In this document: positions 5,944-24,436 of the stretch, one piece after another
Layout of the letters: every line of letters begins with the position of its first letter
Numbering within the stretch: the stretch's first letter is position 1
Translations under genes and position numbers: made by a program
NCBI RefSeq assembly: GCF_900119845.1
Contig: NZ_FPKU01000003.1
Location: forward strand, 64,145-96,144
Direction: 5' to 3'
Origin: Devosia enhydra
GTDB lineage: Bacteria > Pseudomonadota > Alphaproteobacteria > Rhizobiales > Devosiaceae
Length of the DNA stretch: 32,000 nt
The notes under the pieces: generated by a model
The model's database searches: none
The model's input: only the letters and a program-made list of their open reading frames with translations
Told to the model about the DNA's origin: nothing

Positions 5944-6732
5944 TCAGGCGTTTTCCACCGCTGTCTTGATGCCCTGCCGCAGGAACACGATGGCGAGAGC
6001 CTCCATCATCAGATGGCCCGCCGACTGCCCCTCGAAGCTCGGCAGGTCGACGCCCATCACTTGTGCCAGCCCGGCGATCGCCATGGCCAGGGCGACAATG
6101 TAGGTCTTGTAGCCGGAAAGAAAAGTCATCATTTCGCTCCAGGGTTGCGCCGGGGCTAATCCCCCGGCTGAAGTTCGGTCGCCCGCCATGGCGAGCGCTG
6201 CAGCGCGGATGGCGGCCACCCGCCGGTTCCAGCCGCGTCCGAAGGTTGCGTAGGTCGCAAGCCGGTCGAGAAAGCTCAGGCGCCGGTCGCACAGCGCCTT
6301 GATAAGACCCGCCAGTCCCACTAGCCCGATGCTGCGCCTGATGGCGGCCAGCGTGATCGGGCCGACAAATCCATCGGCCTTCGCTCCCACGATCCCCTGC
6401 AGGGTCCTGATGGCACGGTCCGGTCCCGAATTGACGGCAAAATCGAAGAGCGCCAGGTCGAGCCCGGCCGGCAGATCGGCGCCCCCGCTCCTGCGCCAGA
6501 AGAGCGCCTCGTAGATCGTCGCGGCTTCGGCGCGATCGAGCCCGCGCACCTCGGCCTTGGGCAGGCTCCAATAGGGCGAAATCCCCCGCCAGCGGGCCAG
6601 CGTCTTGCGGGTGATCCCCATATTGGTCGCCCCGCCCGGGTCGGCCGGATGGTCGGCATAGCCGCCTTCATGGGCGAGCACATGGGTGAGGCAATGGGCA
6701 AAGCGCGCGCGTGCGTCACCGTCGTCAGTCAT
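5944..6732 (-). CDS. GH108-family N-acetylmuramidase with PG_binding_3 domain and two C-terminal transmembrane helices (holin-associated-muramidase-like)
   Basis: HEGGYADHPADPGGATNMGIT motif (GH108). DGFVGPITLAAI (PG_binding_3). C-terminal hydrophobic helices YIVALAMAIAGLAQVMGV and LMMEALAIVFL. ATG at 6732 overlaps the g15 stop by 8 nt (ATGACTGA). Confidence 0.85.
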   Translation of the reverse strand: MTDDGDARARFAHCLTHVLAHEGGYADHPADPGGATNMGITRKTLARWRGISPYWSLPKAEVRGLDRAEAATIYEALFWRRSGGADLPAGLDLALFDFAVNSGPDRAIRTLQGIVGAKADGFVGPITLAAIRRSIGLVGLAGLIKALCDRRLSFLDRLATYATFGRGWNRRVAAIRAAALAMAGDRTSAGGLAPAQPWSEMMTFLSGYKTYIVALAMAIAGLAQVMGVDLPSFEGQSAGHLMMEALAIVFLRQGIKTAVENA

Positions 6733-9700
6733 GAAACACCCCCTGTCCCGCATGCCCCGGTCCCAGCACCGGGCTCACCTGCTGCACAGCGAAGTCGAAT
6801 GCCGCCGGCAGCGCCCCGAAATCGGCGATCTGGTCGGCCGCCGAATAGAGCGCCGAGCGACCCGTCACGCCGAGAACCCGCGCCGTCTCGCCCTCGGCAC
6901 TGATGGTGATGCGCCAGTCGTCCGGAACCCCATCGGCCGGCACCTCCGCAAGTGCCCAGTTGCCCGGATCGGCGCGGCTGCGGCCGATCCAGCCCAGCGT
7001 TACGTCCCCGCTTGCTGGATCGCGGATGGCTGAGAGATGCACCGGCGCCAGCGGCAAGGCCGGCCCCAGCCCGGCATTGAGGTCCAGCGCCGTGCCATCG
7101 AGATCGCCCGGTCCCGCGAAAGCGAGGAGATCGGCACTGCCACCCAGCCACCCAATGGGCATCGGCAGCAGCGCCACCTTGTCGTCGAGCACCAGCGCCA
7201 GCGCGCCGCTGGCAGCCGGCGCCATTCCGGCATCGGTGCCGTCGAGCCCGCGCAACAGCCGCGTCAGCCGATAGGTCGCCGGCGCCACGAGCTCGGCCCC
7301 GGCATAGCCGACCACCTCCCAGCCCAATTCAGTCTGTAGCAGCAGCCGGTTGGCGCCCGCCAGCACCGGACCATCCTCGGCCGATGTCGGATGCCCGCTG
7401 CCAAACCGAATCAGCAGGCTGCCGAAGGCGTCCCAAACCGCCAGCGGGCCGGCGGGTGCCGGCTCCAGCAGCGTCCCGATGCTCGCCGATCGCGTCAGCC
7501 GCGACAGCCGCTCGCCCGTTGCGACATCGACCACCGTCACCGCCCCCGGCCAGGGCCGCGCGCTAGCCGCCAGCAACAGCCGCGACTGGCCGGGATTGGC
7601 CGGGCTTGCCGGCAGATGCGCCGCTACCACCTGCGGCAATGCCCGTGGCGCCGGTCCCGGCGCGACGGGCAAGGCCCGCTCGGCCGTCACCGCCACATCG
7701 ACGAGCGGCACGCGCGCCCGCGCCACCACCTGCCGCGTGCCAGCATCGCGCAACTCGGTGATCTCGAAGGGCCCCTCGCCTTCGCCAGACAGTGCAACCA
7801 CGTCGCCCGGTTCGAGTCGCGTCTCGGCCTCGGGCAGCGCAAAGCGCAGCGTTTCCCCGCTCATCGCCCGCGCCAGCAGCAGCCGTTCGGCGGCGAAGCG
7901 CGCACCCGACGCATCGAGCACCAGGGCGAAATCCTCGCCCGCCAGAGCCCCGCCGCCGAACCGGCTCGCCGTCACCGTGCCGGCCAGATAATCCCGTTCC
8001 CGGTCGCCATAGCCCAGCGCGAACTGGCGGACCGCCTCACCGGGGTCGGGCCGCCGCCGCGACAGGATCGCGCCCTCGCCGGCGACGAGATCCTCGCGCT
8101 CGATCGTCGCGACCACCCGCCGCGACGGAGCCACGCTGGCCAGCCCCGCCGGCCCATCGCGCAGCAAGAGGCTCGTGGCCTCCAGCACCGGTTCGAGCGC
8201 GGCGCGGCAATTGGTCGGCCCGGTCACCCGATAGCCATGAATGAAGGGCGGTCGCGCCGCCTCCGCGTTGACCGTCACCCCGAAATCGGCGGCAATCGCC
8301 GCCACCAGTTCATCGGCCGCCAGCCCGCCGAGCCGTCCGGTCAGCCAGTGGCCCGTAACGTGATTTACCCCGTCCGCCCAGTTCTCACGGTCGCGCGGAA
8401 AAGCCGGAAAAGGCCGCGCATCCCAGGTCCAGAGATGGATATGGCCCAGATCGACCATCGGCCCGCCATAGACACTCGAGACCGGGTTGGCCGTGCCATC
8501 CGCCCAATGCCCGAGATGGGCACGCAGCACCTGCCGCTGCATCAGCGGGTCGGGCGTACCGGCCGAAAAATACGGCCGCCCGTCCTCGGCGCTCTTGGCG
8601 TCGCCGAACACATTAGGCTGGTTGGCACCCCGATCCACCGCAGCGCAACCCAGCTCGGTGAACCAGATGGGCTTGCTCTGAGGCACCCAGGCGGTCGGCT
8701 CGGGGCTCCGTACCCCGCCGATGCGCTCGTGATGGGGCTCGCGCCACCAGCTCACAATATCCTTGAACCGCCACACCCACGGCTCGCCATGCACCGCATC
8801 GGTGATCGGCGTCCTGAGCCCGGCGATGCGGTCGGCAGGGTCGGCATAATACCAGTCGAACCCCTCGCCACCGGCAATACCGGAACGCAGGTAACCGAGA
8901 TCATACGGGCTCTCCCAGGCCTCGGCATCCGCATGCCGATCTCCATCGCGCCAGTCGGCGATGGGCATATAGGCGTCGATCCCCACCGCATCGATGGCGT
9001 CGGAGGCCCAGAGCGGATCGAGATGAAAGCGCCGATCCCCCGATCCATCCTGCGGCTGGTGCCCGAAGTACTCGCTCCAGTCGGCCGCATAGGTCAGCTT
9101 CACACCCGGCCCCGCCAGCGCCCGTGCCTCTTCGGCAAGCCCCATCAGCTCCGCGACGAAAGGATAGCTCCCGCCGTCCCCGCGCAGGGTCGTCAGCCCC
9201 ACAAGCTCCGAGCCGATCACCAGCGCATCGGCGCCCGCCTCTCCGGCGAGGCTTGCATAATGGCGCACTATGCGCCGCAGGCCCCAGTCCCCGGTCCCGC
9301 CCACCAGTTGCGCGATCTGCGTCTCGACCGCCCCCGAACCCTCCGGCGATCCCGCCCGCCCCGGTGCCGGATCGCAGGTGATGCGGCCGCGCCAGGGATG
9401 CGCCGGCTGCCCCGCCTCCCCCGTATAGGGGTTGGGCAGCGTGTTGCCGGCGGCAATATCCATCAGCACGATGGGGTAGAGCGTCACCGAAAGCCCGCGC
9501 GCCCTCAAATCGGCGATCGCCGCCCGCACGCTCTGGTCCGATGGCGTGCCGCCATAGGCCGGCCCGCCCGCGAACTGCGAGACCACCGGCGCCGTCCCCC
9601 GCGTCAGCCCGGCCACCGACCAGCCCAGCCCGGTCACGGTCCGGTCCGATGCTTCCACCTTCGGGCTGATCGTGCAGTGCCCTGCCCGGAGGTCGCTGCC

Positions 9701-13541: not shown

Positions 13542-13635
13542 TGCCTGTCTCTTGATGGTTGAAATCATTCGTTCGCCAGCCGCCGCCGAACGCGATCATC
13601 GCGAGGCTCTTGCTCTGCAGCTTGCCCCTCACCCG

Positions 13636-13711
13636 GTCGTCCCTGCGAAAGCAGGGACCTCTGTTTGAGAGGCAAGCGCAGCAACGGAGGTCCCTGCTTC
13701 GCAGGGACGAC
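13636..13711. repeat. REP/MITE-like double-hairpin palindrome, family C (GTCGTCCCTGCGAAAGCAGGGACCTC ... inverted copy)
   Basis: Near-perfect roughly 26-nt inverted arms, each itself a hairpin. A second full copy is at 15769-15846 and a half copy at 21804-21843. Confidence 0.85.
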
Positions 13712-15691: not shown

Positions 15692-15740
15692 GCCCTCATC
15701 CTGAGGAGCCTCGACAGAGGCGTCTCGAAGGACGAGAGCC
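15692..15740. repeat. REP-like palindrome, family A/B short form (GCCCTCATCCTGAGG...CGTCTCGAAGGACGAG)
   Basis: Inverted arms of the CCTC(A/G)T(C/G)CT..GAGG type shared with the copies listed below. Confidence 0.75.
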
Positions 15741-15768
15741 GGGCACCCCATCCCGCCCCCACCCCTGG

Positions 15769-15846
15769 GTCGTCCCTGCGAAAGCAGGGACCTCCGTTTG
15801 CGATGCGGACGGGCCAACAGAGGTTCCTGCTTCCGCAGGAACGACC
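15769..15846. repeat. family C double-hairpin palindrome (second copy)
   Basis: GTCGTCCCTGCGAAAGCAGGGACCTCCGTTTG...GAGGTTCCTGCTTCCGCAGGAACGAC. The left arm is identical to 13636-13661. Confidence 0.85.
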
Positions 15847-15870
15847 CGGTAGAGGGGGAGAAACGATTAG

Positions 15871-15926
15871 CCCGAACCTCGTCCTTCGAGGCCCCGCTGA
15901 TGCGGGGCGCCTCAGGATGAGGTTCG
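15871..15926 (-). terminator. nested stem-loop (family A REP) starting 6 nt after the g5 capsid stop; candidate leaky terminator or mRNA stabiliser
   Basis: CCGAACCTC(G/A)TCCT.GAGGC outer arms around the inner hairpin CCCCGC-tgat-GCGGGG. Followed on the mRNA strand by CTAATCGTTTCT. Confidence 0.5.
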
Positions 15927-15932
15927 GTCGCC

Positions 15933-17171
15933 TCAGCTCGCGGCGAACTTCAGCAGCTTGATGGCGTCGAAATCCTGCACGCCGCCGCCGACACGCTTGG
16001 TGGTGTAGAACAGCACATGCGGCTTGGCCGAATAGGGATCGCGCAGCACATTCACCCCCTGCCGGTCGACCACGAGATAGCCGCGCCGGAAGTCGCCGAA
16101 GGCGATCGGGGTGGCCGCAGCCCCGATATCGGGCATGTCCTCGGCCTCAACCAGCGGGAAGCCGAGCAGGGTCGAGCGGCCGCCCGCGCCCGCCGCCGGC
16201 TGCCAGAGATAATTGCCATCGGCATCCTTGAACTTGCGGATCGCCCCTTGCGTCCTGCGGTTCATCACCCAGCTGGCATTCTGGCGATAGCCGGCCTTGA
16301 GGGTGTAGACGAGGGCGACCAGCACGTCGCTCTCGTCCTCGGCCGGCCAGTCGCCCGAAACGCCGGTCGGCAGATACCCGATCTTGCCCCACTCCCAATC
16401 GTCCTCGGCCGCCTGGGTGTAGTTGAGAAAGCCGCGCGGGCGGTTGGTGCCGTTGCCCGAAACGAAGGCCGTGGTCTCCTGCGCCGCGAACGCCGCGTTC
16501 ACCTCGTCGGCCAGCCAGGCCCCCACATCCACCGCCGCATCATCGAGAAAGGCCGAGGTCGCCGCCGGCATGGCGTAGAGTTCCGCGGCCGGAAAGGCGA
16601 GGGAATCGAGGGTGGGCGATGCCGTCTCCGGCCGCGCCGCCGTCTCCCCGGCCCAGCCGGCCGCCGGCCCGGTCAGGGTGACCGGCTTGCGATAGGTGCC
16701 CGAGGAGATCACCCGCACCCCGGCTATGGCGCGGATGGGCGACAGCGCCGTCATCAGCCGGGTGATGGCTGCCTCGGTCTCTTGGGGCACCACATAGCCG
16801 CCATCGGGGTTCGAGCCGATCGAGAGCGCCTTTTCCTCGCCGCGCTTCACATAGGCGGCAAAGGCCTGCTTGTACTCGTCGGCGGCGGCCGGGCTCCCGC
16901 CATCGAGCTGCGGCCGGGCCCGGTCCACCGCCTGCCGGTCGAGCGCCGCCTTGGCCCCGTCGATGGCGCGGTTGAGGCGGTCGAGCTTGTCATCGATCAG
17001 CGTATCGGAGGATCCGCGCCGCTCGATGCGGTCGAGCCGCTCGTCATTGGTCTGCTTGAAGGTCTCGAAGGCGTGCATCAGCTCGCCCAGAAGCGCCTCG
17101 GCGCCGCCGGCCACGGGCTGGGCCCCGGCGCCGGCCTTGGTCTCGAAGGCATCGGTTGAAAAATCGGTCAT
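15933..17171 (-). CDS. GTA g5-type major capsid protein (HK97 fold)
   Basis: About 412 aa from ATG 17171 (MTDFSTDAFETK...), preceded by GAGGG. N-terminal scaffold-like coiled coil, then an HK97-type body (...YRKPV..., ...FGDF.RGY.VVDR). Confidence 0.9.
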   Translation of the reverse strand: MTDFSTDAFETKAGAGAQPVAGGAEALLGELMHAFETFKQTNDERLDRIERRGSSDTLIDDKLDRLNRAIDGAKAALDRQAVDRARPQLDGGSPAAADEYKQAFAAYVKRGEEKALSIGSNPDGGYVVPQETEAAITRLMTALSPIRAIAGVRVISSGTYRKPVTLTGPAAGWAGETAARPETASPTLDSLAFPAAELYAMPAATSAFLDDAAVDVGAWLADEVNAAFAAQETTAFVSGNGTNRPRGFLNYTQAAEDDWEWGKIGYLPTGVSGDWPAEDESDVLVALVYTLKAGYRQNASWVMNRRTQGAIRKFKDADGNYLWQPAAGAGGRSTLLGFPLVEAEDMPDIGAAATPIAFGDFRRGYLVVDRQGVNVLRDPYSAKPHVLFYTTKRVGGGVQDFDAIKLLKFAAS

Positions 17172-17176
17172 CGGGT

Positions 17177-17650
17177 TCATCCCTCGTTGCGGATTGCGGA
17201 AAAGCGCCGGTGGCGCGCGATGCGGGCGGCGTCGAGCATGGGAAAGGTGACGATGGAGATTTCCCACAGGTCGACCTGCCAGAGCCTGCGGCCCCCGCTC
17301 ACCGGCTCGCGCGTGGCGCGCCGTGTGCGAAAGCCGATGGACAGCCCGTCGAGCGCGCCCTTTTCGATCAGCCGCCGCAGCGCATCGGCGCGCGGCACGC
17401 CGGGCACCAGCCGGCCCTCGGCCCAGAGGCCGAAGCCGTCCTCGACGAGCTTTTCCCAGATGCCGACGGGCTCTTTCGGGTCATGCTGGAAGAGCAGGCG
17501 CACCTGCTCATGCCCGCGCGCTGCGAGGCTTTTGGCGAAGGCACCCTTCATCACGATGTCGCCGGTGTCGTCGGGGCGGCCGAATACGCTGGCATAGCCG
17601 GCGAACTGCCCCTCCTCGTCGATGGCGATATGGCGGGAGGCGAGCGCCAT
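17177..17650 (-). CDS. GTA g4-type HK97-family prohead protease
   Basis: 157 aa from ATG 17650 (GGAG 9-12 nt upstream). FAGYASVFGRPDDTGDIVMKGAF and LSIGF motifs. The 174-codon in-frame upstream extension is Arg/Pro-rich junk. Confidence 0.85.
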   Translation of the reverse strand: MALASRHIAIDEEGQFAGYASVFGRPDDTGDIVMKGAFAKSLAARGHEQVRLLFQHDPKEPVGIWEKLVEDGFGLWAEGRLVPGVPRADALRRLIEKGALDGLSIGFRTRRATREPVSGGRRLWQVDLWEISIVTFPMLDAARIARHRRFSAIRNEG

Positions 17651-17807
17651 CAGCTGCGCTCCGGCTGCGCCGGGGGCGGTGCCGGGTTGCGGGTGCCGGC
17701 CTGCCGTCCGCCATTGGGCGCGATGGCGCCGGCGATGTTCCAGGCGAATTGGCGGAACACCTGGGCGTGTTCCGCGCCGGCTTCGCGGGGGGATCGGTTG
17801 GATCTCG

Positions 17808-17999
17808 TCACTTGTCTCTCCGCTGGAAAAGCTGGTTGAGCGCCGCGATTTCCTTGACGAAATCGTTGAAGCGCCGGTTGGCGGTGCTGAGCTCGCGCAG
17901 GCTCCAGGCCAGAAGCGTCGATGCTCCCGAAGCCCAGAGAAACAGCGCCAGATGCGCCAGGTCGCCGCGCTCGGCGACGGTCTTGGTGAGTGTGTCCAT
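17808..17999 (-). CDS. small single-TM protein in the g3.5 position of the GTA cluster
   Basis: 63 codons from ATG 17999 (MDTLTKTVAERGDLAHLALFLWASGASTLLAWSL...). Third-codon positions are overwhelmingly G/C. Same strand as the GTA genes. No clear SD, and no homology recognised. Confidence 0.45.
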   Translation of the reverse strand: MDTLTKTVAERGDLAHLALFLWASGASTLLAWSLRELSTANRRFNDFVKEIAALNQLFQRRDK

Positions 18000-18036
18000 C
18001 TGCCGTATCGTGTGGTGGTGAAGGATGGAGGGAGCC

Positions 18037-18273
18037 ATGCCGACGGTGTTGCGTCTTGCCGGCTACCGGTTCTTCTTTTTCGCCAATGAAGGCGATGAGC
18101 CGCCCCATATTCACGTCGAGGCGGGCGACGGGCTTGCCAAGTATTGGCTTGAGCCCGTGGAACTGGCATCATCGCAGCGGTTTAAGGCCCATGAGCTGTC
18201 GACCCTGAGGCTTGTGATCCAGAGCAACCGCCAAAAGTTTCTTGAGGCGTGGAATGAATTCTTTAGTGCTTGA
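18037..18273 (+). CDS. DUF4160-domain protein
   Basis: MPTVLRLAGYRFFFFANEGDEPPHIHVEAGDG... is the characteristic DUF4160 N-terminus. GGAGGGAGCC precedes ATG 18037. Opposite strand to the GTA genes. Visibly lower GC than surroundings. Confidence 0.85.
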   Translation: MPTVLRLAGYRFFFFANEGDEPPHIHVEAGDGLAKYWLEPVELASSQRFKAHELSTLRLVIQSNRQKFLEAWNEFFSA

Positions 18274-18517
18274 TACCGAGCCGGTCGCAATCGACGTCAC
18301 TGTCGAAGCCGATGTTCTGCGTGTCGTCCTAGGCGATGGCCGCCAGATTTCCGTGCCGATCGAGTGGTTTCCGCGCCTCAGGGACGCCACAGCCACAGCT
18401 CGCGCCGATTGGCGGCTTTTGGGCGGCGGTGTCGGAATTCACTGGCCGCAGATCGATGAGGACATATCGATCAAGGGGCTGCTCGCCGGCCGCGGTGCCC
18501 GCAACCGCGCTGCTTGA
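18254..18517 (+). CDS. DUF2442-domain protein
   Basis: ...VLGDGRQISVPIEWFPRLRDATATARADWRLLGGGVGIHWPQIDEDISIKGLL is the characteristic DUF2442 core. Overlaps the DUF4160 gene. Start is uncertain: ATG 18254, the ORF-track start at 18242, or GTG about 18266. Confidence 0.85.
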   Translation: MNSLVLDTEPVAIDVTVEADVLRVVLGDGRQISVPIEWFPRLRDATATARADWRLLGGGVGIHWPQIDEDISIKGLLAGRGARNRAA

Positions 18518-18520
18518 GCC

Positions 18521-19681
18521 CTATTCGCCGACCCCAAGCATCGCGCGCTTTTCCGCATCGGTGAGGAAGCCTGCCTCACTCACGCGTCGCCAGAGCTGGG
18601 CGCGATCTTCGGCGAGCGCCTCGACCGCGTCGAAATCGGGGATGATCTCGATCCCCTCGCCAAAGGCGGGGGCGAGCCAGAATGACAAATCGTCGGCCAC
18701 CCGCCGCACCAAGGGAATGATGGTCTGCCGCCAGAGCCCCCGGCTCGCTTCCACGAGGTTGGCATAGGTATTGTCGCCCGGAATGCCGAGCAGCATCGGG
18801 GGCACGCCGAAGGCGAGCGCGATGTCGCGCGCCGCCCCGTTGCGCGCCTCGATGAAATCCATGTCGCGGGGGCTGAGCGCCATGGCCCGCCATTCGAGCC
18901 CGCCTTCGAGCACCATCGGTCGGCCGGCGTTGCGGGAGCCGGAAAATCCGTCCTCCAGCTCGCTCTTGAGCCGCTCGAACTGCTCCTGCGTCAGGTGCCC
19001 GCCGGTGGTGTAGACCAGCGCGCCCGAAGGCCGGGCCGAATTGTCGAGCAGCGCCTTGTTCCAGTTGGCCGAGGCATTGTGCAGGTCGATCGCCTGGCGC
19101 GCCGCATCGAGCGGGGAGAGCCCGTAGTGATCGTCAAGCGGGTTCATCAGGCTCATATGCAGAACCCGCGCGATGGGCAGGCTGTCCTGCCGCAGCCGTG
19201 TCGTGCGCCCGCCAGCCGTGTGTTCGTATCCCGTGATCCAGCCATCGGGGCCGGCAATCACCTTCACCCGGTCGGGTCGCAGCACATGCAGGCCCTTGAC
19301 CGCACCGTCGATGATCGCGGCATCGAGATAGGCGTTCCCCGCCACCATCAGGTGGGCATAGACCATTTCGAGCATCTCGCTGCCCGATTGCCGCGCATTG
19401 GGCCGGCGCAGCAGCGCGAGCGCCGGGTGTTCGGCCAGTCGCCGCCCACCCTCCTCGATGCGGAAGGGCACGCGATTGGCCGCCTCCGCCACCATCCGCA
19501 CGCAGCGATAGACCACGGGGTTGCGGGCAAAGCCGGCCTGCCCAAGCCCGCCTAGCCCGGCCGCGGTCCATTCGGCGGGGCTGAGGCTGTCGATCCGCAC
19601 GAGGTGATGCACGGGGGCGGCCTTGGTCTCGGCCGGCCGCGCGCCCTGCCCGCCCGTGAGGCGGCTGAGCCAGTTCGGCAT
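18521..19681 (-). CDS. GTA g3-type portal protein (HK97 family)
   Basis: About 386 aa from ATG 19681, preceded by AAGGA (the ORF-track start at 19705 is a TTG). Portal-like sequence throughout. Confidence 0.9.
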   Translation of the reverse strand: MPNWLSRLTGGQGARPAETKAAPVHHLVRIDSLSPAEWTAAGLGGLGQAGFARNPVVYRCVRMVAEAANRVPFRIEEGGRRLAEHPALALLRRPNARQSGSEMLEMVYAHLMVAGNAYLDAAIIDGAVKGLHVLRPDRVKVIAGPDGWITGYEHTAGGRTTRLRQDSLPIARVLHMSLMNPLDDHYGLSPLDAARQAIDLHNASANWNKALLDNSARPSGALVYTTGGHLTQEQFERLKSELEDGFSGSRNAGRPMVLEGGLEWRAMALSPRDMDFIEARNGAARDIALAFGVPPMLLGIPGDNTYANLVEASRGLWRQTIIPLVRRVADDLSFWLAPAFGEGIEIIPDFDAVEALAEDRAQLWRRVSEAGFLTDAEKRAMLGVGE

Positions 19682-19715
19682 GAACGCATTCCTTGTTGCA
19701 ATCAAATGGGTCGGC

Positions 19716-20972
19716 TCAGAGCCTGCGCACGCGCGGCCCCTGGTCGCCCAGCATCAGTTCGGTCAGGGCCCAGACCAGCGCATCGACCCGGTTGGGCGAG
19801 CGCCCCTCGCTCAGCCCGTCGGCCCCGAAGGCGCACATTTCGTCTTCGAGCGCGCCCAGCCCGGCCGCGTGGCGGATGAGCCCGCGGGCATAAAGCGCCG
19901 CCACCGGTTCGGCGCGCAGCCACTTGCCCCGGCTCGCATGCACGGATTTGACCGGTACGGAGGGGTCGATCTGGGCGATCATCTGGCGCACCAGCTCGCC
20001 GCCCTGGTTGACTTCGGCCACCACCAGATTGGCCTCATGGGCATGAAAGGCGCGCACCACGCGCTCGGCCCAGATCACCGGGGGCGCCGGATGCAGCGTC
20101 GCATCCTCCAGCACCACCGCCCCCGCTTCGCTGCGGGTGGCGACGACGATGCCGCAGGCATCCGATGTCTTTTTGCCCGTCACCGGCGGGTCCACCGCCA
20201 CCACGGTGCGCCCCGCCTCGGTGCCCGGTTCGGGCCGCAGGAACTGGTCGCGCCGCCACAACGCATCGGGCCGGTCCTCGATCAGCTCGCCATCGAGCTC
20301 CTGTCGCCCCAGCACCGTATCGCGATAGCGCGCCACCACCACCTCGAGAAAAGCCGGCGCCAGATGGCTGCGATTGTCGGCGGTCTTCATCCGCGTCACC
20401 ACCGTCTGCCCGTCGTGCAGCAGCCGCTTGATCAGCGGGGTGGGCCGTGGCGTCGTGGTCGCCAGCTGGCGGGGCCGGGGCCCCAGCCTCAGCCCGAATT
20501 GCAGCATGTCCCACGCCGCTTCGGGGTCCGGCCATTTGGCCACCTCGTCGCACCAGGCGGCGGCAAATTGCGGACCGCGAAACCGATCCGGGTCCGAGGC
20601 CGAAAGCACGCTCGCCACAGCGCCCGAAGGCCAGGTCAGCGTCGTGCCCTTGAGCACCGGCCGCTCGGCCGGCGGATGTACCGCCAGAAGCCCGCTTTCG
20701 CCCCGGATCATCACCGCGATCGCCTCGGCCATGGTTTCCCCCACCAGCGCGATGGGCGAGACCGGCACCGGCGCGGTGGCAAGGCTGCGGATCCATTCGG
20801 CCCCGGCGCGGGTCTTGCCCGACCCCCGCCCGCCGATCAGCAGCCAGGTCGTCCAGTCGCCGGGGGGCGGCAATTGCTGGGGCCGCGCTGTCAGGGCAAA
20901 ATCGTACCAGAGCTGCGTGATCTCGGCTTCGCTCAGCCCCGCGACGGCGCGGGCACCGATCGAGCGCTCCAC
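19716..20972 (-). CDS. GTA g2-type large terminase (DNA-packaging protein)
   Basis: 418 aa. Walker-A-like GGRGSGKT. GTG start 3 nt after the g1 stop. Confidence 0.9.
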   Translation of the reverse strand: MERSIGARAVAGLSEAEITQLWYDFALTARPQQLPPPGDWTTWLLIGGRGSGKTRAGAEWIRSLATAPVPVSPIALVGETMAEAIAVMIRGESGLLAVHPPAERPVLKGTTLTWPSGAVASVLSASDPDRFRGPQFAAAWCDEVAKWPDPEAAWDMLQFGLRLGPRPRQLATTTPRPTPLIKRLLHDGQTVVTRMKTADNRSHLAPAFLEVVVARYRDTVLGRQELDGELIEDRPDALWRRDQFLRPEPGTEAGRTVVAVDPPVTGKKTSDACGIVVATRSEAGAVVLEDATLHPAPPVIWAERVVRAFHAHEANLVVAEVNQGGELVRQMIAQIDPSVPVKSVHASRGKWLRAEPVAALYARGLIRHAAGLGALEDEMCAFGADGLSEGRSPNRVDALVWALTELMLGDQGPRVRRL

Positions 20973-20975
20973 GCC

Positions 20976-21413
20976 TCAGTCCTTGACCAGCCGGTCGATG
21001 CGCTCGGCCAGCTTGCGCCGCAGCCCCTCGGCATCCACGCTCTGGCGGCGCGGCGCCTTGCGGGCAGTGCGCTCGTCGATCTCGATCAGCTTTTCGAGCG
21101 TGGTGACGAGCTTGCCCAGCGCCGCCATCTCGCGATCGGGTTCATCGGACATCATCTTCTCCATGGCCAGGGTCTGGCGGTCGAGCAGGCGAAAGAGCCG
21201 GCCGACCATTGCACCGCGATCGACCCGAACTCCGCGCTGGCGTGTCGCCCAGGCCTCGCGGCGCGAGCGCCAGTCGAGCTGGCTCCGGGTGATGCCGTGG
21301 CGGACGATGATCTCGCGCACCAGCTCTTCACCGGCCTCGTATTCGGCCCGCACCGCCGCCCAGTCGACCGCCGCCGCCGGCGCCGGCGCCTCGCCTTCGG
21401 TCACATCCGTCAT
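20976..21413 (-). CDS. GTA g1-type small-terminase-like protein
   Basis: 145 aa from ATG 21413 (AGGA upstream). Charged helical protein in the g1 position. The ORF-track extension to 21467 has no support. Confidence 0.65.
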   Translation of the reverse strand: MTDVTEGEAPAPAAAVDWAAVRAEYEAGEELVREIIVRHGITRSQLDWRSRREAWATRQRGVRVDRGAMVGRLFRLLDRQTLAMEKMMSDEPDREMAALGKLVTTLEKLIEIDERTARKAPRRQSVDAEGLRRKLAERIDRLVKD

Positions 21414-21453
21414 CGCTGTCCTGAAACTATGAAGGCCGCCGGGCTCAGCGCCC

Positions 21454-21476
21454 AGTTCTGCGACCATGGCAGAACT
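21454..21476. promoter_or_regulatory. perfect palindrome AGTTCTGC-N7-GCAGAACT about 40-60 nt upstream of the g1 ATG; candidate operator
   Basis: 8-nt perfect inverted arms read directly. Located in the GTA leader. Confidence 0.45.
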
Positions 21477-21568: not shown

Positions 21569-21694
21569 CCCTCATGCTGAGGCTTCCAAGCGACCCGCAG
21601 GGTCCGGGCGCTCCTGTGGAGCGACCGGAGCGCAGGAAGGCCATGAGCGCTATGCGCGAATGGCTCGCCAAAGGCGCGTCTCGAAGCACGAGGG
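21569..21694. repeat. family B long-form MITE-like element (about 125 nt)
   Basis: Nearly identical (a handful of differences by eye) to 24299-24424. Terminal inverted arms CCTCATGCTGAGG / TCTCGAAGCACGAGG. Confidence 0.85.
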
Positions 21695-21711
21695 CGGGCA
21701 GCACGGTGCGG

Positions 21712-21762
21712 GCGAACCTCGCCCTTCGAGACGCCCCTGCGGGGCTCCTCAGGGTGAGGTCC
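21712..21762. repeat. family A-like palindrome (CGAACCTCGCCCTTCGAGACGCCCCTGCGGGGCTCCTCAGGGTGAGG)
   Basis: Same architecture as 15871-15926: outer arms plus an inner CCCCTGCGGGG hairpin. Confidence 0.7.
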
Positions 21763-24198: not shown

Positions 24199-24203
24199 GC
24201 GCC

Positions 24204-24428
24204 GCCCTCGTCCTTCGAGGCTTTGCTTTACGCAAAGCACCTCAGGATGAGGGCCGAAAGGCAGGTGCAGTAGATACTTTCTCTGAAACCCCTCAGAACC
24301 TCATGCTGAGGCTTCCAAGCGACCCGCAGGGTCCGGGCGCTCCTGTGGAGCGACCGAAGCGCAGGAAGGCCATGAGCGCTATGCGCGAATGGCTCGCCGC
24401 AGGGGCGTCTCGAAGCACGAGGTTCGGG
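24204..24428. repeat. composite repeat unit, copy 1 (family A palindrome, about 45-nt spacer, family B long form)
   Basis: A at 24204-24254, spacer 24255-24298, B at 24299-24428. Same order and orientation as 24731-24875. Confidence 0.85.
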
Positions 24429-24436
24429 CTCTTCGC

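Follow-up and report, generated by a model that had tools for sequence, protein, structure and literature searches.

A DUF4160/DUF2442 gene pair, probably an addiction cassette of the DhiTA type, inside the head module of a Devosia enhydra gene transfer agent cluster

Why should the head genes of a gene transfer agent (GTA) be interrupted by two small genes that read in the opposite direction? The question is raised by a 32,000-nucleotide stretch of the Devosia enhydra genome (hereafter the window), in which an RcGTA-like head-tail cluster, recognised by its Pfam and NCBIfam profile matches, lies on the - strand throughout its GTA genes. A pair of + strand genes is lodged between the portal gene g3 (18521-19705, -; Phage_portal PF04860, E 6.6e-90; TIGR01537) and orf63 (17808-17999, -), a small GTA open reading frame (ORF) at the g3.5 position. 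The pair consists of a DUF4160 (DhiT-like) gene of 78 aa (18037-18273, +) and a DUF2442 (DhiA-like) gene of 87 aa (18254-18517, +). It appears to be the sole strand break in the GTA cluster, as an earlier sequence-only reading of this DNA had maintained: ORF listing combined with Pfam reveals no other + strand ORF with family support. The most likely reading, in which we place moderate confidence, is that the pair constitutes a functional type II toxin-antitoxin (TA) module of the DhiTA type, that it is mainly a selfish addiction cassette, and that it is old cargo at the portal/g3.5 junction.

Both genes match their families at scores well beyond the respective cutoffs: PF13711 at 67.5 bits (E 1.2e-18; cutoff 23), in a full-length match covering positions 1-65 of 65, and PF10387 at 76.5 bits (E 1.8e-21; cutoff 23.9). 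They form a compact bicistron on one strand, with the toxin gene first and an overlap of 20 nt between the ORFs, equal to the overlap in homologs elsewhere. The start codons adopted here, in preference to those of longer listed ORFs, are backed for both genes by the N-termini of homologs (MPTV/IL... and MSTL/MNTL...). Shine-Dalgarno sequences are present for the genes of the pair, that of the DUF4160 gene, GGAGGGAG, lying just upstream of it. The DUF2442 gene ends with TGA at 18515-18517, on the far side of a 3-nt spacer (18518-18520) from the convergent portal stop at 18521-18523 on the - strand; at the other end of the pair a divergent intergenic region of 37 nt (18000-18036) separates the ATG of orf63 from the ATG of the DUF4160 gene, both intervals being read directly from the sequence. 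The coordinates of the pair, its domain calls and the 3-nt gap had all been given correctly by the sequence-only reading; the interval 17651-18036, for which it had named no gene, holds orf53 and orf63 on the - strand.

That reading had also described the function of DUF4160/DUF2442 pairs as not established, a statement overtaken by experiments in Dickeya and in Thermus. The combination was named dhiTA in 2021, as a type II TA system of Dickeya dadantii 3937 (PMC8198452). There DhiT inhibits growth in both Dickeya and E. coli and the antitoxin rescues it; the two genes are co-transcribed, toxin first, from a promoter on which the antitoxin acts as a repressor and the complex as a stronger one (PMC8198452). 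In 2025 a DUF4160/DUF2442 pair carried by a Thermus plasmid was reported to raise plasmid persistence, its second ORF neutralising the first, and a plasmid without the second ORF could not be introduced (PMC12724237). Most DUF4160 proteins are followed by a DUF2442 protein, according to a comparative study in which DUF4160 also appears in the Menshen protein NsnC, where it is the effector domain (PMC12065111). The look of a toxin-antitoxin or addiction module, remarked on from the letters of the pair, is thus borne out at the level of the family, which is that of the DhiTA TA system.

The window pair resembles Dickeya DhiTA in having the same domain pair in overlapping small chromosomal ORFs with the toxin first. 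It differs in the length of the overlap (3 nt there, 20 nt in the window), is a distant relative by sequence, and lies antisense inside a GTA operon, whereas the Dickeya genes occupy an ordinary chromosomal site. The 'Persistence Enhancing Module' of the Thermus thermophilus plasmid (PMC12724237) shares the two domains and their order, and its behaviour, in which the second ORF is needed for the first to be tolerated and the carrier is stabilised, is the addiction behaviour proposed for the window pair. That module is, however, plasmid-borne, sits downstream of a rep gene and comes from a distant phylum, while the 'carrier' in D. enhydra would be a chromosomal GTA cluster. DUF4160 homologs were present on 49 of 72,556 plasmid records, with a DUF2442 partner always present among the annotated rows listed, and in just 2 of 50,697 phage records. 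Neither protein of the pair matched a PADLOC family at E <= 0.01, and PHROGs gave no match for the pair.

Toxin and antitoxin action and autorepression may be carried over to the window pair from its Dickeya and Thermus homologs. On that footing the first gene would encode a growth-inhibiting toxin and the overlapping DUF2442 gene its neutralising partner, and the complex of the two probably represses its own promoter. The free antitoxin is probably short-lived. The DUF2442 protein ends in -NRAA (window 18503-18514), and -RAA is shared by all GTA-embedded copies and by the non-GTA copy L082; this conserved tail may be a C-terminal protease tag, a degron of the ClpXP type that would render the antitoxin labile. 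A pair so built would resist its own loss, loss of the module or of the surrounding DNA being penalised, and by linkage it may stabilise the neighbouring GTA genes without itself being a component of the GTA; the operon would tolerate it, probably by means of antisense transcription across it. The DUF4160 protein has 1511 homologs by search; its residues P2, F14, E21, H24, H26, W37 and A44 are invariant, and E21, H24 and H26 hint at an enzymatic site. The AlphaFold (AF2) model of the DUF4160 protein (pLDDT 88) has five strands followed by two helices. DUF2442 has relatives in the PDB, 3k8r and 2x8n, both uncharacterised.

How the pair came to lie where it does can be judged from related clusters. 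A portal-protein scan with one genome per species yielded 80 GTA loci (given L-numbers here), the closest being from Devosia at 68% identity. In the outgroup Hyphomicrobiales, at about 24 loci with a readable junction, the portal gene abuts or overlaps the orf63 homolog, or the protease gene where orf63 is undetected. By this comparison a portal gene abutting the next GTA gene is the ancestral state, and orf63 the ancestral downstream neighbour of the portal. Together with the atypical composition of the pair, these outgroup clusters uphold the earlier claim that the pair entered the GTA head module secondarily. Junction states were counted over the clade of the window together with the named Devosia and Arsenicitalea genomes, wherever the junction was readable: the portal/orf63 junction holds the DUF4160/DUF2442 pair in 10 loci, other cassettes with a polymorphic-toxin N-terminal motif in about 19 and other content in 10, and is empty (under about 260 nt) in about 15. 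The state of the junction can differ even between very close relatives. Since some 82% of the Devosiaceae GTA clusters with a readable junction are without the pair, and since homologs occur at unrelated chromosomal sites, the pair is not a part of the GTA.

In all 10 of the pair-bearing loci (the window, L004, L007, L019, L020, L036, L040, L043, L051 and the Arsenicitalea locus L081) the pair runs antisense to the GTA genes and adjoins orf63. The DUF2442 stop lies 0-19 nt from the portal stop, tail-to-tail, in 6 of the 10; the 3-nt spacer of the window recurs in L081, and the two genes overlap by 0 to 19 nt in L004, L036, L043 and L051. Identity between pairs rises with identity between the corresponding portals (Spearman 0.65 over 45 non-independent pairs; for example 0.91/0.88, 0.85/0.86 and 0.83/0.85), and the groupings in a tree of the TA proteins match those in the portal tree. 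These comparisons point to a secondary but old insertion, with a long and largely vertical residence in the Devosiaceae GTA head module. A recent or unique event, as implied by the sequence-only reading, is at odds with the same junction and orientation in 10 Devosia and Arsenicitalea lineages and with the co-variation between pair and portal. The same reading would have given up its case had the pair been found at this exact position in all related clusters with a host-like composition; copies at the same position do exist, in some relatives and not in all, and the composition is not host-like.

Selection appears to have maintained the pair over this period. Against relatives, dN/dS is 0.05-0.36 for DUF4160 and 0.10-0.36 for DUF2442, which places both genes under purifying selection. 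In L051 the toxin gene has an in-frame stop and in L020 the N-terminal half of the toxin has been lost, with the antitoxin intact in both; toxin-first decay is the pattern expected of a TA module. Intact ORFs, these dN/dS values and toxin-first decay in relatives together argue that the pair is functional in the window.

The pair had been described as visibly more AT-rich than its surroundings, and the lowest-GC 480-nt stretch in the whole window is indeed 17995-18474 (GC 0.585, against a mean of 0.687). The GC content of the pair itself is 0.603 (z = -2.6), and at third codon positions (GC3) the value is 0.67, as against 0.80-0.88 in the GTA genes and most of the credible non-GTA ORFs of the window. 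We considered and rejected the idea that low GC marks a recent acquisition: the GC3 of the pair is below that of its neighbours in every host lineage, non-GTA sites included, and even where pair and portal co-diverge, so low GC does not date the insertion. Direct and inverted repeats around the pair (17600-18700) gave short chance-level matches only, and no recombinase ORF lies near it in the ORF list of the window or by Pfam; as it stands, the pair does not qualify as a transposon, an insertion sequence or an integron-type cassette. Across the entire window no Rfam family reached its gathering score.

What does the arrangement imply for transcription of the GTA genes? It had been pointed out that the convergent junction leaves no room for a terminator, and none was predicted there: a scan of 17000-19000 gave no more terminator-like sites than chance would, two in all and both away from the junction, and folding of the junction on both strands (z +0.9 and -0.1) gave no unusually stable fold. 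The tight convergent packing is not particular to the GTA. Non-GTA homologs, 62-65% identical over the concatenated pair, occupy chromosomal sites among unrelated genes, between cupin and P450 genes near clpPX in Rhizobiales and beside dctM in Sulfuricella, and at three non-GTA loci a convergent gene lies 110, 21 or -15 nt beyond the end of the pair. Such packing is therefore a habit of the cassette and not evidence of a GTA-specific circuit. The special feature of the GTA site is that the pair has genes of a single operon, on the opposite strand, for both its neighbours. The overlap of portal and orf63 in the outgroup implies that the two are co-transcribed, and because the pair splits them, expression of orf63 to g15 needs either antisense read-through of about 0.5 kb or a promoter in, or just beyond, the 37-nt gap. 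In most of the pair loci that reach that far, the protease and capsid genes downstream give full-length matches without an internal stop, which shows that the operon tolerates the pair. Processive anti-termination of the GafZ type operates in the Caulobacter GTA cluster (PMC11150451), and anti-termination of that type would ease read-through here. It is a reasonable inference that GTA transcription reads antisense through the pair.

Several observations weigh against a functional addiction cassette. No sigma-70-like promoter was found in the scan of 17000-19000, and the gap upstream of the toxin gene is 37 nt in the window, compared with 85-100 nt in the other GTA-embedded copies. Against the NCBIfam equivalog toxin_DhiT (NF048015) the window toxin scores 23.6 bits (E 5.9e-5) where the cutoff is 100, so that it is best described as a member of the DhiTA superfamily and not as an ortholog of Dickeya DhiT. 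Its AF2 model has no fold match in the PDB, in agreement with the literature. In Dickeya, dhiTA gave no measurable stabilisation of a test plasmid (PMC8198452), and addiction is therefore not universal in the family; the frequent loss of the pair in Devosia indicates, moreover, that any addiction is weak on evolutionary time scales. Finally, a TA tree built on 165 aa does not separate the window copy from a non-GTA copy, with 28% bootstrap for monophyly of the GTA copies, and groups the Devosia and Arsenicitalea copies together. A separate acquisition in D. enhydra could accordingly take the place of a single old insertion, and the shared junction argues against it. That the whole pair is a decaying, non-functional remnant or a neutral hitchhiker seems to us very unlikely. 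Such a view can appeal to the inactivation of the toxin in two sister lineages, to frequent loss and to the absence of a detected promoter, but it sits badly with intact ORFs in the window, with conserved invariant residues and a conserved overlap, with the presence of Shine-Dalgarno sequences, and with dN/dS well below 1 against all relatives.

The convergent layout also invites the proposal that the pair is wired to GTA induction, in the sense that anti-terminated antisense transcription would silence the pair, the labile antitoxin would decay, and the toxin would arrest or kill the producer; conversely, transcription of the TA genes might hold down leaky g3.5-g15 expression. Two of the three ideas of the sequence-only reading, gating of the structural genes by convergent transcription and antisense silencing of the module, amount to this proposal. 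In this layout, which has no terminator to part the genes, transcription has to converge. All DhiTA copies embedded in a GTA run against the GTA genes, as does every PIN/Phd pair at the terminase/portal junction (described below); the arrangement has persisted with co-divergence, co-transcription is implied by the ancestral overlap of portal and orf63, and anti-termination is known in GTA clusters. We nevertheless think this coupling unlikely: the antisense orientations may stem from just two insertion events and then carry little statistical weight, most Devosiaceae GTA clusters are without the pair, which is hence not needed for GTA function, and packing is equally tight and convergent at non-GTA loci. 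Similarly doubtful is an anti-phage role, in which the pair would be an abortive-infection module in a defence-type hotspot, fired by the shut-off of host transcription or by a phage trigger protein. Defence against phages is a role of many type II TA systems. The junction is hypervariable in relatives and holds conflict genes, both TA modules and polymorphic-toxin/immunity-like cassettes, and Menshen NsnC uses DUF4160 as its effector domain (PMC12065111); yet no PADLOC model matches either protein, the literature consulted yielded no defence phenotype for the DUF4160/DUF2442 family, and nothing at the locus suggests a sensor component.

In sister species the junction is crowded with conflict genes. 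At about 19-20 related Devosia loci the portal stop is met, with a gap of -4 to +4 nt, by the start of another ORF. The N-terminal 50 or so aa of its product are conserved and end in the invariant YRPDQPRxPxGTPEGGQW; behind them comes one C-terminal domain out of at least 8 that are unrelated to each other, and several of the C-terminal types are trailed by their own kind of small immunity-like ORF. Such polymorphic-toxin-like cassettes were located in L006 (5168-6582; Devosia sp. Root436), L003, L005, L011, L013, L014, L019 (5369-8192), L021, L026, L028, L030, L031, L033-L035, L041, L042, L045 and L047. The window is without one, having neither the YRPDQPR...GGQW motif nor a tblastn match. 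A CdiA-CT RNase A domain scored above the Pfam threshold in three homologs of the post-portal toxins; where a homolog bearing this domain lies on the 1.9-kb contig L087, there is no portal end upstream and its placement after a portal is unconfirmed. The sister-species cassettes gave no PADLOC or PHROG match.

Inside some of the cassette arrays the 3' end of the portal gene is duplicated (L019, 6507-6863 and 6633-6728; L003, 3073-3348), and in L019 a portal duplicate is joined to a DUF2442 fragment that bears a stop codon. The duplicated ends suggest that cassettes have been displaced by recombination at the portal end, in the manner of CDI and Rhs orphan arrays. As a separate observation, the metagenomic protein P0198 has the first 28 or so residues of the orf63/g3.5-position protein (MDDLTKTIIERRDLAHLALFLWAKGA...) fused to the polymorphic-toxin N-terminal module, and would appear from its sequence to be another recombination product at the portal/g3.5 junction. 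The otherwise 'empty' portal/orf63 junctions of L010 (5156-5285) and L023 (5174-5291) contain 120-130 nt that look rich in hairpins to the eye, perhaps small repeat elements or the scars of lost cassettes.

A second antisense TA module, a PIN toxin with a Phd/YefM antitoxin, is found between the large terminase and portal genes of Arsenicitalea and Devosia loci: L081 (5704-6380), L002 (3222-3644), L004 (3212-3628), L017 (3234-3994), L019 (3206-3628), L020 (3209-3625) and L039 (3323-3837). The full module is counted for Arsenicitalea and at least three Devosia loci, and three more loci are counted for their PIN ORF; only for L081, L017 and L039 was an ORF of the antitoxin noted or called. Across Devosia the g2/g3 junction varies in length from 0 to 3.6 kb, and in the window neither the PIN/Phd module nor a polymorphic-toxin cassette is present. 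Prophages are known for hotspots, between conserved genes, of cargo ('moron') genes and of defence and TA genes. The Devosiaceae GTA resembles them in offering a fixed junction of conserved structural genes, occupied by different small conflict cassettes and empty in some cases, but the host element here is a domesticated, vertically inherited GTA and not a mobile prophage. No report of such hotspots in GTA clusters was found in the literature searched.

Might the products of the post-portal cassettes travel in GTA particles? A profile search with the linker motif against 1.84 billion representatives gave matches P0214-P0351, and all six of the 1-3 kb proteins scanned (P0214, P0215, P0216, P0219, P0220 and P0230) were found to repeat the YRPDQPR...GGQW motif 4-11 times; five of the six carry ART, ART-PolyVal, Acb1 (anti-CBASS), GNAT, PARP or Zeta-toxin domains by Pfam. 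From this distribution the motif would seem to be a linker, or a site of processing, in effectors that are packaged into heads. Phage polyvalent proteins are predicted to be packaged in the capsid and injected, in a paper that leaves GTAs unmentioned (PMC5512222), and MuF polymorphic toxins are encoded immediately after portal genes, again with GTAs unmentioned in the paper (PMC5576092). The sister-species cargo is like these in lying directly after the portal gene, in its conserved N-terminus and swappable C-terminal toxins, one of them similar to CdiA-CT RNase A, and in the immunity-like ORF that comes next; it is unlike them in its N-terminal part of only about 50 aa, which has no MuF match in Pfam, and in its location in a GTA. 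Because the sister-species toxins share the linker motif with proteins resembling head-packaged polyvalent proteins, they could be loaded into GTA particles, and by this analogy packaging and delivery of post-portal toxins by GTA particles may occur. One may go further and regard the junction as a functional 'weapon bay', in which the DhiTA pair of D. enhydra is silenced by anti-terminated GTA read-through, its toxin committing the producer, and in which the portal-coupled toxins of sister species are loaded into GTA particles and delivered with the DNA; to this combined scheme we attach a low probability.

The remaining GTA genes of the window, all on the - strand, are arranged as in related clusters, and the gene order is kept across the 80 loci. 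Upstream of the portal gene lie a small-terminase-like ORF (20976-21467) and the large terminase (19716-20972). Downstream of orf63 come orf53 (17650-17811), the prohead protease g4 (17177-17650; Peptidase_S78, E 9.8e-32; TIGR01543) and the capsid gene (15933-17267), followed in order by a head-tail connector (Phage_connect_1), a head completion protein, a tail completion protein and the tail tube, and last by DUF2460, a g13-type hub and a 1261-aa protein with GTA_TIM, Phage-tail_3 and Rcc01698_C domains. By gene content, a co-linear g1-g15-type series in which the GTA-specific GTA_TIM/Rcc01698 protein, DUF2460 and the g13 hub are all represented, the host locus is an RcGTA-like cluster, an assignment that concerns its genes. 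Homologs of orf63 were found by tblastn in 67 of the 80 related loci, the alignment starting at residue 14 (MDTLTKT versus MDELTKT), and its start was placed at MDTLTKT; the ORF includes the hydrophobic stretch LAHLALFLWASGASTLLAW. It has no match in Pfam or NCBIfam, and neither orf63 nor orf53 has a match in PHROG or PADLOC. The small orf53 shares start/stop overlaps with both its neighbours, GTGA with orf63 and TGATG with the protease gene; its GC3 is 0.83, and a 57-aa gene has been called at the equivalent place in Arsenicitalea.

Two further features of the window may be recorded. An ORF of 269 aa (5944-6753, -) with Glyco_hydro_108 and PG_binding_3 domains, endolysin-like in character, shares 29 nt with the end of the g15-type gene, whose strand is also its own, and may be a cell-wall hydrolase of the GTA cluster. 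There is also a family of palindromic repeats (REP/MITE-like), at 15715-15899, 13635-13700, 21570-21742, 24199-24440 and 24726-24875. One element, with inverted arms of 87 nt, lies in the gap between the capsid gene and g6; a related copy of 66 nt at 13635-13700 overlaps ORFs, and further copies are found upstream of g1 and outside the GTA cluster. As potential hairpins within the operon, these elements fit with GTA transcription that is insensitive to terminators.

In D. enhydra, then, a known TA family is found in a new place, and the new element is its location in a hypervariable toxin/immunity slot of a domesticated GTA. The usual view of a GTA cluster is of a conserved operon that is inherited vertically and carries no cargo; here intact conflict genes lie in the head module, and in the Devosiaceae as a whole these comprise, at two junctions, TA modules in antisense and, among relatives of D. 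enhydra, swappable toxin/immunity cassettes. For the window itself the result is modest, its main use being as a natural experiment on what a GTA operon does with 0.5 kb of genes that run against it. The hotspot context is of more value, since it supplies, from close relatives, GTA loci of the 'empty', 'TA' and 'toxin-cassette' kinds that can be compared directly, and it raises the idea that GTAs may carry protein weapons besides DNA.

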